Both the position numbers and the translations under genes were made by a program. From Chlamydiota bacterium (GTDB taxonomy: Bacteria; Chlamydiota; Chlamydiia; Chlamydiales; Rhabdochlamydiaceae): a stretch of DNA of 55,444 nt. Under the pieces are notes generated by a model that was given only the letters and a program-made list of their open reading frames with translations, was not told the origin of the DNA and searched no databases. The stretch lies in assembly GCA_013287215.1 (NCBI GenBank), contig JABDEH010000001.1:1-55444 (forward strand), in the 5' to 3' direction. Positions 52,136 through 55,444 of this stretch are shown here, one piece after another (the stretch's first letter is position 1; every line of letters begins with the position of its first letter).

Positions 52136-53440
52136 AGTGAAGTGATTAAGAGGGTAGGCACCAGTGAGCAAGGGACAACACTTTGTGAATAAGAGAGTGG
52201 GACTTTGTTGATCAGAAAAGATCTAGACTTCTTCATAAAACCTGTGCGCAGAAGCGTGGGATTTTATCAATCCTATTTACCAATCCATTCCATATCTATC
52301 CCTAGCAGAGATAAGTTTTTCTCTGAGGTATGTAGAGATTAGAAAAAAAAGGGACCACACTAAAAAGCCAAACGCATGGCTATCTCCAATAGAGCCTGTG
52401 ATCAAGGGGGTAGGGTTTTGTTTATTTTGTTTATCGGCTCGACCCATCCACAACTCACTTAGGGAGAAGGTTTCCTCAGAGGAATACAGTGATTAAGGGA
52501 GGAGGGTCTTGTTTATTAGCGTATGACTCAGCGATCTCTATAGAGTCGGTGATCAAGAAGGTAGGGTCTTGTTTATTTTGTTTATCACCTCGGTCCATCC
52601 CCATCTCACTTGGGGAGAAGGTTTCCTCAGAGGAATACAGTGATTAAGGGAGGAGGATCTTGTTTATTAGCGCATGACTCAGCGATCTCTATAGAGTCGG
52701 TGATCAAGAAGGTAGGGTCTTGTTTATTTTGTTTATCACCTCGGTCCATCCCACATCTTCCTTTGGGATAAGTTTTCTCAGAGGAATACAGTGATTAAGG
52801 GAGGAGGGTCTTGTTTATTAGCGTATGACTCAGCGATCTCTATGGAGTCGGTGATCAAGATGGTAGGGTCTTGTTTATTTTGTTTATCACCTCGGTCCAT
52901 CCCACATCTTCCTTTGGGATAAGTTTTCTCAGAGGAAAATAGTGCTTAAGGGGGTAGGATCTTGTTTATTAGCCTATGACTTGCCTGACTCTATGAAGCC
53001 AGTGATTAAGAGGGTAGGGTTTTGTTTATTTTGTTTATCGCCTTGGTTCATCCCTCACCTCCATTCGGGATAAGTTTTCCTTAGAAGAAAATAGTGCTTA
53101 AGGGAGGAGGGTCTTGTTTATTAGAGCCTATAACTTGCCTGTCTCTATGAAACTAGTGATTAAGAGGGTAGGGTTTTGTTTATTTTGTTTATCATCTCGG
53201 TCCATCCCACATCCTCCTTTGGGATAAGTTTTTCTCAGAGGAACATAGTGATTAAGGGAGGAGGATCTTGTTTATTAGCCTATAACTTCCCTTTCTCTAT
53301 GAAATCAGTGATTAAGAGGGTAGGGTTTTGTTTATTTTGTTTATCACCTCGGTCCATCCCTATCTCCCTGCGGGATACGGTTTTTTCAGAGGAACACAGT
53401 GATTAAGAGAGGAGGGGCTTGTTTTTTTGCTGTTATTGAC
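52136..53440. repeat. tandem array of ~8-9 copies of a ~151-bp unit, each made of two related ~35-bp cores (gtgatYaagRRggtagggtcttgtttatt...) separated by degenerate spacers; iteron-like
   Basis: Periodicity was measured from occurrences of gatcaag/gattaag at 52400, 52551, 52702, 52853, 52994, 53158 and 53310 (151, 151, 151, 141, 164, 152 bp). Non-coding. The inter-core segments also repeat, so this is not CRISPR. Confidence 0.9.
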
Positions 53441-53572
53441 TTCTTCAATGCATACTCCATCCAGTAAGAAATATATTTCTAAAAGGGCGACGATATCGGG
53501 GAACTTTGAGAACTATCTGGAGCTCCATGGCTGTCAATCTAAGTTGTTCTTAGAGCTTTAACAACGCAATGA

Positions 53573-55225
53573 TCACTTTCCATGACCTAGGGTCTGTTTT
53601 GCAAATTCTTTGGCTCTGTTTGAGATGTTTTCTTTTATGGATCGTTTTTCTTTTAAGATAAGTCCTACCATAGTCCCAGAGATACCCAGGTGAGCTGCAA
53701 ACTGCTTTGCATTTAGTTTGGATTGGATAAATATCTCACGAAACTCTTCGAGAGTCAGCAGTGTGGTTTCCTTCTTCTCGATGCCGAGTGATTCTCGTTT
53801 TTTTTGAATAAGTTTCAATTCCTCACCAAGCCATTCCGGAGGCGTCAACGTGAGCGAACACTTAAAGGGATTCTCGGATTTAGAGGGCAGGATCTTTTCC
53901 CCATTACTTTTCCAGTCTCCCAAGTACCCATTTTCTTTCATATAGATCAATTCTTGTTCCAATGCTCTAAGTTCTCTGAGTTTGTATTTTCCCTTACAAT
54001 CTAAATCACACCAATCCATTAGACTGACCACGGATAATTTTTGTTGGGGATTCATTCTCCAGAAAATAGCTAATAAGGGTGCTAAATAGATGGTAAGGTG
54101 ATGCTCACGATGGTTTTCATGGGCTACCTTTTTAAGCAGTTTCGTATATTTTTTGGAATGACCGTCTTTTGGCTCAAATGCATTTTTATACCAAAAATCT
54201 GTAGCCCTTAGCTTGATTTTTTCGTCAATAATGACCTTATCAAAGATCTCTTGTCGGAAGCCATCAATGCTGAAAAGCCGCTCCCCTTGAATGACCTCTT
54301 TTTTCCCTTCCTTTTTCCTAGCTGTGATAAAAAGGCTTGAAAAGATCTTGATAATCTCACTCGATGTTTTTTTCAGCTCAGGGTCATAACCTCCATAAGG
54401 TTTTTTAGTATGCCCAAGGCGCGCAAGATGTTCATTTACACTCCATATGAAGTGACCTTTTCTGAAGTTTTCTTCCAAGCCTATCAGCAGCCCCAGTAGA
54501 TGCCGGAGTCCTTCCGCACCAAAAGAGCGTTTGATGTGCATGGCTAAGCTTACCTCTCTGAATTGAGGATCATTTCTGAATACAGATACTGTGATCTCGG
54601 CTTCTGCCTCGACCCTGGGGTTATCACTGACAACAGCGATGTATTTTTCATTGGACTCCTCTTCGCTGTTCATATAAGAGGTCTGTTTCTCGACCCTTAT
54701 GATAGACGATAAGAACTCTTCAGCCTCTTTTTGTTCTTCAGCTGTCCACTCAGAATGCGGTTTGCTCAATAAGCGGCGGGGAATTTTGTCTGGTTTGCCA
54801 GCAAACATGGCAAGCAATGTGAACATCAGTGCATGCGAGGGCAGAGCGAAGGTGTCTTTGTTTGAGGACTGCTCCACAACGCGCTGGATGGCATCCTCAA
54901 TATAGGTCTTCTGGATAGTAGGACCCATATCGTTTAGGAGGTTTTTCAAAGCAAGAAGTTGTGGAGGGGAAAAATTTTGAATGGAGGAGATGGCAGATTC
55001 CCAATCCTTCTTTTCTGAAGAGTTAATCTCCTTAAGGGATACACCTAGCAATTCTAAGTCTTCAAGGGTGTCTAGAATTTTGATGGTCTTTCCCGTCTTG
55101 CTATCGATGACATGGAGCTTTTTCTCCACTATATGCAGCTGGTAATTCTTTTCACCATGACCCTTGTCCAGGGGCTCTACAGTCTCATCGCTAGTGACTT
55201 GATTTTCTTCATCTATTTTTTCCAT
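53573..55225 (-). CDS. 550-aa protein with C-terminal XRE-type HTH; putative replication initiator / origin-binding protein (inference)
   Basis: C-terminal HTH (LNAKQFAAHLGISGTMVGLILKEKRSI). Its start is coupled (TAATG) to the upstream DnaB-like gene. Its 3' side abuts the tandem repeat array. Confidence 0.55.
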   Translation of the reverse strand: MEKIDEENQVTSDETVEPLDKGHGEKNYQLHIVEKKLHVIDSKTGKTIKILDTLEDLELLGVSLKEINSSEKKDWESAISSIQNFSPPQLLALKNLLNDMGPTIQKTYIEDAIQRVVEQSSNKDTFALPSHALMFTLLAMFAGKPDKIPRRLLSKPHSEWTAEEQKEAEEFLSSIIRVEKQTSYMNSEEESNEKYIAVVSDNPRVEAEAEITVSVFRNDPQFREVSLAMHIKRSFGAEGLRHLLGLLIGLEENFRKGHFIWSVNEHLARLGHTKKPYGGYDPELKKTSSEIIKIFSSLFITARKKEGKKEVIQGERLFSIDGFRQEIFDKVIIDEKIKLRATDFWYKNAFEPKDGHSKKYTKLLKKVAHENHREHHLTIYLAPLLAIFWRMNPQQKLSVVSLMDWCDLDCKGKYKLRELRALEQELIYMKENGYLGDWKSNGEKILPSKSENPFKCSLTLTPPEWLGEELKLIQKKRESLGIEKKETTLLTLEEFREIFIQSKLNAKQFAAHLGISGTMVGLILKEKRSIKENISNRAKEFAKQTLGHGK

Positions 55226-55444
55226 TAGGATCCGCTTTTCTCTTTTAATGTGGATAAAGGTCTGTCAAATTCCAAAGAAATCGTTTGGCTTGCTGGCCCA
55301 TTGCGATTTTTTAGCAGTATGAGATCTAAGTCAACCGTACGTTTTGTCAACTTTTCCCCTTTGTTTTCGGTAGCTTCTTTGGATTCATTCCAAATGCCTA
55401 GGACTAGATTTGCATCATTCTCAATATCCCCCGCTTCGCGTAAA
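55226..55444 (-). CDS. DnaB-family replicative helicase, C-terminal end (partial, continues beyond right edge)
   Basis: Minus-strand translation ...ANLVLGIWNESKEATENKGEKLTKRTVDLDLILLKNRNGPASQTISLEFDRPLSTLKEKSGS* matches the DnaB C-terminal block (aDlvlflyRde.....g.aelivaKnRnGptg...l.F). Stop TAA at 55226-55228. Confidence 0.55.

Follow-up and report, generated by a model that had tools for sequence, protein, structure and literature searches.

A region that is probably the iteron-type replication module of a plasmid lies at one end of a 55,444-nucleotide stretch of DNA (the window) from a member of the Chlamydiota (Rhabdochlamydiaceae; assembly GCA_013287215.1, contig JABDEH010000001.1, positions 1 to 55,444 of the forward strand), with a 550-amino-acid (aa) protein as its probable initiator (Rep). 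An earlier reading made without database searches, the sequence-only reading, had proposed that a helicase gene, a gene for a helix-turn-helix (HTH) protein and a tandem repeat array together constitute a replicon. This proposal is upheld by the predicted initiator fold of the 550-aa protein, by binding-site-like repeats in a single orientation that are kept across the protein family, including on a circular plasmid, and by an origin-like core that adjoins them. The variant in which the replicon is a phage-plasmid found no backing, as a tblastn search of 50,697 phage records returned no match. The features of the module are as follows.

55228 to 55444, minus strand: 3' end (72 codons) of a gene for a DnaB-family helicase, truncated at the contig end (Pfam DnaB_C, E 1.3e-07)
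53573 to 55225, minus strand: open reading frame (ORF) of the predicted replication initiator, 550 aa (fold models)
52389 to 53426, minus strand: candidate auxiliary iteron field, seven tandem 151-bp units (Tandem Repeats Finder, pattern scan, unit alignment)
52238 to 52388, minus strand: decayed eighth array unit, with low identity to the other units and degraded site cores
52142 to 52212, minus strand: three tandem minimal iterons of ~22 bp (sequence, and the same cluster in relatives)
52001 to 52098, minus strand: conserved origin-like core (pattern shared with relatives, folding as single-stranded DNA)

The proposed translational coupling of the helicase gene to the gene for the 550-aa protein holds, since the ATG of the latter overlaps the stop codon of the upstream ORF as TAATG. 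In relatives, where the helicase gene is complete, it encodes a 781-803-aa fusion of a DnaG-type primase and a DnaB-type helicase (Zn_ribbon_DnaG, Toprim and DnaB_C). The array was likewise placed correctly on the 3' side of the 550-aa gene, because that ORF is on the minus strand.

Tandem Repeats Finder assigns the 151-bp period to 52389-53424 (6.8 copies, 87% matches), and a repeat finder recovers an 18-nucleotide (nt) core 16 times between 52141 and 53415. The period first noticed is real, but the 8-9 copies and 1.3 kb originally counted reduce to seven clear units and one decayed unit, extending over ~1.04 kb without the latter and 1.19 kb with it. Two sites per unit were correctly recognized, although they are unequal and not two ~35-bp cores. 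The A site (38 nt, minus strand; GATAAACAAAATAAACAARACCCTACCnTCTTRATCAC) consists of two ATAAACA half-sites and a core, and the B site (28 nt, minus strand; AATAAACAAGAYCCTCCTCCCTTAATCAC) of one half-site and a core. Read on the minus strand, a unit runs B site, 53-nt spacer, A site, 31-nt spacer, and the spacing of sites inside the array alternates between 91 and 60 bp. What recurs every 151 bp is a higher-order unit of one composite A and one composite B site and not the iteron itself, which removes the earlier concern that 151 bp is unusually long for an iteron. The degenerate 28-nt pattern GTGATYAAGRGNGNAGGRTYTTGTTTAT, scanned with up to 3 mismatches across the whole 55 kb, has 14 matches, all on the plus strand and all within 52398-53426 (chance expectation from shuffles, 0). 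The copy number of the array is that of one assembly. An independent short-read assembly (run SRR8433574; L027) has the same sequence as the window and ends at 53331 (+), inside the first composite site; because it breaks there, as repeats make short-read assemblers do, the repeat is taken to be present in the raw data. A coding reading of the array was rejected, 151 not being a multiple of 3 and the longest array ORF measuring 76 aa.

Relatives of the module were assembled as 22 loci from genome assemblies (chlamydial contigs, or contigs of metagenome-assembled genomes that are probably mis-binned) and six contigs encoding close relatives of the protein. The sole protein match in a plasmid database is on a circular 89.5-kb plasmid of Criblamydia sequanensis (L001; 74% identity), where parA, a small ORF, a 781-aa primase-helicase fusion, the 550-aa homologue and 1.3 kb of unannotated DNA follow one another. 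This gap is without a tandem repeat and contains seven dispersed copies of TTGTAAACAnnnGTAAACAAAAnCGACCnnnnTnnnTCAC, the equivalent of the composite site of the window. The site family lies directly after the gene, and in the orientation of the gene, in all loci with downstream sequence (~28) except L031, in which an insertion sequence follows the gene. With a common loose pattern, 6-16 forward sites are counted per locus; ten loci have no reverse site and L018 has one. Nearly all sites fall within ~1.2 kb downstream of the gene, single outliers reaching ~3 kb in L001 and L018, and in several loci the stop codon of the gene shares bases with the first site. Members of the subclade of the window (80-93% protein identity) carry 12-17 sites per locus, with a central hexamer CCTACC where CGACC is found elsewhere, and with half-site GTTAACA or ATTAACA (ATAAACA in the window). 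Three 106-bp units with GCTAACA and TCTACC are present in L019 (62% identity), and in the most distant relatives (37-40% identity) the gene is followed immediately by three 22-bp iterons in tandem (AAACCGACCCCnA...), the sole kind of site there. When the array core was sought in unrelated contexts, it was found only beside the 550-aa gene family. Near-identical DNA is absent from the plasmids of PLSDB, and the window-type iteron gave 0 matches in metagenome contigs of the Joint Genome Institute, a result uninformative on other contexts.

Outside the array, the minimal iterons of the window have their TCAC ends at 52185, 52164 and 52142, the first of them with an ATCAACA half-site. Three tandem ~22-bp iterons without a half-site are located ~40-55 bp upstream of the core in 17/17 hairpin-bearing loci inspected. 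The core, an element of ~100 nt kept in 18 loci according to a pattern search, has the consensus order half-site, AT-rich palindrome (TTATATTCAAnnAGAATATAA), inverted repeat TGTTTAC-N9-GTAAACA, GC hairpin GCTCTC-N14-GAGAGC and A-run. Its counterparts in the window are these.

52098-52092: half-site ATTAACA
52080-52063: AT-rich palindrome ATTCAAC/GTTGAAT
52059-52053: inverted half-site TGTTCAC
52043-52037: GTCAACA
52034-52007: GC hairpin GGCTCTC...GAGAGCC
52006-52001: A-run

In L019, L022 and L023 the core keeps the same order with different sequences, including a different hairpin at the same position, and the succession of three 22-bp iterons, half-site, AT palindrome, inverted half-site and hairpin is preserved down to 37% protein identity. 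Folded as single-stranded DNA, the core forms three consecutive hairpins (z-score -4.47), and 0/200 shuffles fold as well. The origin proper, as judged from these conserved patterns, is probably located outside the array, at 52001-52212. Cumulative GC skew along the contig reaches its minimum at ~51 kb, which agrees with this call and is weak evidence given that the contig is incomplete. Beside the origin core of two relatives (L022:8783-8980 and L024:8846-8937), phased A-tract arrays with an 11-bp period and up to 12 ATAAAAAAAAC-like units were also observed, which are probably intrinsically bent DNA.

The most serious rival explanation holds that the array serves plasmid partition, as a centromere to which the small partner of ParA binds, and that the 550-aa protein is not its reader. 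Long arrays of direct repeats are common among centromeres, the models here being sopC of F (12 x 43 bp) and parC of R1; moreover, most relatives have parA and a small ORF (137-182 aa) in the same cluster, and a GTAAACA-containing site is found ~70 bp upstream of parA. The placement of parA varies, however (upstream in L001, divergent in L029, between helicase and rep in L022), and the sites follow rep wherever parA sits. The same sub-motifs also form the three 22-bp iterons and the inverted repeat flanking the AT palindrome, which is the layout of an origin, and the adjoining protein is modeled with an iteron-initiator fold. Because the sites track rep and their motifs build an origin-like core, a centromere is quite unlikely, and the arrangement across loci indicates that the site field is linked to the rep gene and not to parA.

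The 550-aa protein belongs to no family that sequence searches can name. No Pfam (E<=0.01) or NCBIfam (E<=0.1) family was matched, including Rep_3, and a sequence-profile search of the PDB recovered solely an XRE-type HTH at residues 495-546, which agrees with the HTH that had been read from the sequence and places it at the C-terminus. More than 160 homologues are present in a large protein database, none of them informatively named: all are "hypothetical protein" save two with generic XRE/YiaG-type labels, and some have a precomputed C-terminal HTH_3 match. Non-replication homologues were searched for, and none was found. Two AlphaFold2 models, built from alignments of 26 and 112 sequences (mean predicted local distance difference test score, pLDDT, 64.6 and 65.9), predict two winged helices (about residues 237-341 and 358-461) followed by the C-terminal XRE HTH (about residues 492-546); pLDDT is 80-95 in these two central domains and the HTH, and poor in the N-terminal 230 residues. 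According to these models, the core of the protein has the two-winged-helix iteron-initiator fold of the RctB/pi/RepE type, with RctB and pi closest, and short structural matches, confined to the last 60 residues, are all to XRE regulators. Homology to Pgp2 of Chlamydia was rejected: hhalign of the 26-sequence profile against Pgp2 gave a probability of 0.1, and DUF5597 was not matched. Against a 21-sequence Pgp2 profile, the match is limited to a 59-column N-terminal extension, the cores being unrelated. This extension of ~59 residues is common to some long members of the family and to some long Pgp2 homologues (hhalign 94.7%; alignments A1 and A3), and may be a helicase-interaction or regulatory module.

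Since the XRE HTH is the sole sequence-recognizable domain, the protein could instead be a transcription factor and the array its operator or decoy bank, with replication started otherwise. Isolated sites 2-3 kb away and beside other genes in L001, L007 and L018, together with a related site in the promoter region of parA, would fit such a role. The predicted initiator fold and the coupling to the helicase gene argue for a replication initiator, and make a dedicated transcription factor similarly improbable to the centromere.

Iterons and core inverted repeat agree in their half-site in five types (GTAAACA, GTTAACA, GCTAACA, ATTTACA and GTCAAC/GTAAAC), and the half-site in the core inverted repeat shifts with that of the iterons in L019, L022, L026 and L028. 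The first residues of the HTH recognition helix are correlated with the half-site in the following manner.

GTAAACA half-site: Q (5/5 sequences)
GTTAACA or ATTAACA half-site: A
ATAAACA half-site: T
GCTAACA half-site: P
ATTTACA half-site: S

An observation on L026 concerns the same motifs: just past the core (L026:10735-10880) stand two GTAAACA...CGACC sites, its own field being of the GTTAACA/CCTACC type. The presence of two iteron types may go back to recombination between plasmids that differed in incompatibility type.

Whether the additional copies in the array have a function is best judged from the comparison of sites and spacers. Mean pairwise identity between units is 94% for the A site and 91% for the B site, and 57%, 80% and 65% for the three spacer segments, so that constraint acts on the sites and far less on the spacers. 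An ancestral site pair amplified by slippage or unequal crossing-over into a neutral minisatellite, its extra copies functionless, would explain why similarity peaks among the central units (u2/u3 94%) and the outer units are decayed, a signature of ongoing unequal exchange. It would also account for the variation of copy number and period among close relatives: 151 bp in the window, 149 and 210 bp in L025 (93% identical), ~205 bp in L029, and irregular in L026 and L028. Set against this are the far better conservation of the site cores than of the spacers, the retention of 12-17 sites in the subclade even where tandem order is lost (L026, L028), and the A-B spacing shared by the window (A-31-B-53-A) and L025 (A-32-B-49-A) despite diverged spacers, which together render a purely neutral array very unlikely. 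An array of tandem small RNAs or a CRISPR-like locus is extremely unlikely, since the repeats of ~28-38 nt with regular spacing, and a conserved ATCCC-N11-GGGAT in the longer spacer, are outweighed by "spacers" that are themselves repeated and not unique, by the lack of promoter- or terminator-like consensus sites within the units, of any Rfam match at the gathering score or at E<=1 and of a cas gene among the ORFs scanned, and by the retention of the sites as DNA motifs at variable spacing in relatives. The ATCCC-N11-GGGAT inverted repeat is present in the 53-nt spacer of every unit (window 52448-52480 and equivalents), that spacer being the 80% segment, more conserved than the other two; it was not seen in the spacers of L025. 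Its stem is nearly invariant across units, so that compensatory changes are uninformative either way, and it may be the binding site of a second factor.

For the replication module, a working mechanism can be sketched. The winged-helix pair of Rep would read the minimal iteron of ~17-22 bp, CCTACCnTCTTRATCAC, and the C-terminal XRE HTH the half-site of 7 bp, which is ATAAACA in the window and GTAAACA in most relatives. If the HTH reads the half-site, the composite A and B sites would therefore be bound more strongly or differently. Rep monomers on the three 22-bp iterons would open the adjacent AT-rich palindrome and then load the plasmid's own primase-helicase, encoded just upstream, with the GC hairpin as a putative priming or loading signal. 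The 14 additional, presumably high-affinity composite sites of the array would titrate Rep and handcuff the origin, keeping copy number low and defining incompatibility, and the array would grow and shrink by unequal recombination. Such an auxiliary control field is modeled on ori2-inc with its 39-mers on chromosome 2 of Vibrio (reviewed in PMC6090056) and on handcuffing (PMC4857107), and the array is likened to incA of P1, incC of F and ori2-inc. A more specific scheme joins three modules: winged helices that read the 22-bp iteron, an XRE domain that reads the half-site so that the composites alone act as a tunable control array, quick to expand and contract, for copy number and for incompatibility between chlamydial plasmids sharing a host, and host-independent initiation by a fused primase-helicase that recognizes the hairpin. 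We put this scheme forward tentatively, as a possibility that is less likely than not.

Several points weigh against these assignments. The contig is linear, stops within the helicase gene and has two ends that do not join, and one relative's locus is on a 350-kb contig; for these reasons the window may hold an integrated or decayed copy rather than an autonomous plasmid. The confidence of the protein models is moderate, and the N-terminal 230 residues, including the invariant residues 126-153, are unmodeled. The protein has no sequence similarity to Rep_3, RctB or Pgp2. A DnaA-box cluster is lacking near the core, the scan, which assumed the chlamydial consensus, having returned two matches to TTATCCACA with 1 mismatch in 51500-53600, one of them within an iteron. 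Co-variation is imperfect in the window, where the core has ATTAACA, TGTTCAC and GTCAACA and the array ATAAACA. Because both the half-site/inverted-repeat and the half-site/HTH-residue correlations follow phylogeny, and are thus confounded by shared ancestry, they are suggestive only. The role of the array as a control field is drawn from analogy, and we give it roughly an even chance. Lastly, binding of the sites and replication are predictions, throughout the protein family, from conserved sequence.

In function, the region described here is probably an iteron replicon, which is not a new replication principle. Of the traits of iteron-type theta replicons, the window shows two tandem winged helices as predicted by the models, direct repeats of ~17-22 bp in one orientation beside rep, and an inverted repeat in the core (TGTTTAC-N9-GTAAACA, degenerate in the window) that shares part of the iteron. 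The conserved AT-rich palindrome ~50 bp from the iterons is a candidate for the unwinding element of such replicons. Compared with the classical iteron plasmids R6K (pi), F (RepE, ori2 and incC), P1 (RepA, oriR and incA) and pPS10, the initiator has no Rep_3 match and is ~2x longer, composite sites of 28-40 bp are organized in a higher-order 151-bp tandem, the inverted repeat stands in the origin core and not at the rep promoter, and helicase and primase are plasmid-encoded and not recruited from the host. From RctB and ori2 of Vibrio cholerae chromosome 2, the system differs by the absence of sequence similarity and the extra C-terminal XRE HTH, by long sites that embed the short iteron (39-mers and 12-mers of Vibrio are unrelated to each other), and by a primase-helicase of its own, with no conserved GATC (present in only 4/7 A sites) and no DnaA box found. 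The marks of the ori2 class, namely the RctB sequence family, a Dam GATC in every 11/12-mer, 39-mers unrelated to the iterons and crtS, are lacking here.

The nearest comparison within the same phylum is the 7.5-kb plasmid of Chlamydia, with Pgp1, Pgp2 and four 22-bp iterons. Structural matches of Pgp2 to RctB, pi and RepE led to its proposal as the initiator of that plasmid (PMC11577247). In both systems a helicase gene overlaps a downstream initiator-like gene (in pCTB, pgp1 at 2224-3579 and pgp2 at 3573-4637), tandem 22-bp iterons lie by an AT-rich stretch, and ParA and integrase genes are carried on the same plasmids. The differences are that Pgp1 is a 451-aa DnaB-only protein, against the ~780-aa fusion here, and that the Chlamydia iterons are not beside pgp2. 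The helicases were also placed in separate orthogroups, OG0000162 for Pgp1 and OG0005553 for the Criblamydia primase-helicase CSEC_p0054 (PMC7846284 supplements). CSEC_p0054 is annotated as a putative primase and its neighbors CSEC_p0053 and CSEC_p0055 as "hypothetical protein" (PMC7846284); one of these two should be the homologue of the 550-aa protein. As a separate observation, the 22-bp iteron of C. trachomatis, when read as its reverse complement GTCTACCACCAAGAGTTGCAAA (L002:1-90), starts with TCTACC like the iteron core of L019 (L019:1845-2164), which could be chance.

In outline, the predicted module also resembles IncQ plasmids such as RSF1010, in which RepC, the RepA helicase and the RepB' primase, with ssi hairpins as priming signals, allow host-independent initiation. 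Both combine an iteron-binding initiator (predicted here) with a plasmid helicase and primase, and by analogy the hairpins by the iterons and AT segment could prime. The differences are that primase and helicase are fused, that one hairpin is present instead of two opposed ssi, and that the plasmids measure 50-90 kb or more; no homology is expected. An XRE domain, composite sites that embed the iteron, their higher-order tandem and a fused primase-helicase set the system apart from those of Rep_3, RctB and Pgp2.

Full-text literature searches found no description of an origin or of iterons for the plasmids of environmental chlamydiae. Large plasmids are common in these organisms and hold much of their horizontally exchanged gene pool (PMC7846284). 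The assignment of an initiator, its sites and an origin core supplies a concrete, testable minimal replicon for organisms without genetic tools. Genetics in Chlamydia rests on shuttle vectors based on the native plasmid, for example, one used in PMC11577247, and because those vectors derive from a native plasmid, the construction of vectors for Parachlamydiales and related groups would naturally begin with a minimal replicon. Should the three-module scheme be true, environmental chlamydiae would have a portable minimal replicon in a fragment of ~4.5 kb that combines rep and 52001-52212 with the primase-helicase gene. The 550-aa family would further constitute a third sequence-unrelated lineage of the RctB/pi-like initiator fold within one phylum, and the pairs GTAAACA/CGACC, GCTAACA/TCTACC, GTTAACA/CCTACC and ATAAACA/CCTACC would form a series of iteron-specificity switches for the study of incompatibility divergence.

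The gene content of the window (relaxase, TraD, integrase, AbiTii, RHS toxin and OTU protease) is like that of a mobile element; no tRNA or rRNA is present in the window, and no housekeeping gene was seen among ~30 ORFs scanned. Together with the relatives, this content suggests that the window belongs to a large and probably conjugative plasmid of an environmental chlamydia from the order Parachlamydiales or close to it. The relaxase (1518 aa; 44181-48737, minus strand; Pfam MobA_MobL, AAA_30, TraI_hel_assoc_N and DUF6371) had been described as carrying a primase domain; the relaxase itself stands, and Pfam finds no primase domain in it. TraD-like and DsbB-like ORFs (48933-49430 and 49348-49899, both on the plus strand) lie with it 3-9 kb from the origin, and DsbB and a relaxase fragment also flank the replication module in L028 and L025.

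Next to the origin core is a gene at 50537-51523 (minus strand), whose start is probably near 51446 (GGAGG, then GTG). Its product has a signal-peptide-like N-terminus (KKTLLGLASCFA) and a C-terminal phenylalanine and resembles an outer-membrane protein, with no Pfam family. The leader of the gene contains a promoter-like site (51541-51514) and a 15-bp repeat (51463-51511); the repeat was considered as a half-site operator and rejected.

Further repeats were observed near other genes of the relatives. Approximately 70 bp upstream of parA, GTGATTCnAGTAAATCATCAATTCACTGTTTAC (L001:4140-4175 and L026:4180-4215) combines the reverse complement of the half-site (TGTTTAC) with the TCAC end. A reverse half-site recurs ~3.1-3.2 kb into the locus in most mapped loci of the GTAAACA type (L005, L007, L010, L012 and L015), its position relative to parA having been checked in L001 and L026. 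The element may be an operator for the cluster of parA, helicase and rep; the corresponding region is outside the window. On the Criblamydia plasmid, a 32-bp tandem repeat of 3.2 copies (L001:12170-12271) stands just upstream of a divergent gene for an AAA ATPase with weak similarity to the large subunit of replication factor C, and a further composite site is located at 12464, ~200 bp from this repeat.

The cargo of the window includes four ORFs at 24544-30066 (minus strand), 3716-4750 (plus strand), 14343-15272 (minus strand) and 12259-13332 (plus strand). Among the cargo products are an RHS-repeat protein of 1840 aa whose C-terminus is DUF2380, a cysteine protease of OTU/otubain-like type that is likely a deubiquitinase directed at eukaryotes, the abortive-infection protein AbiTii and a protein with leucine-rich repeats.

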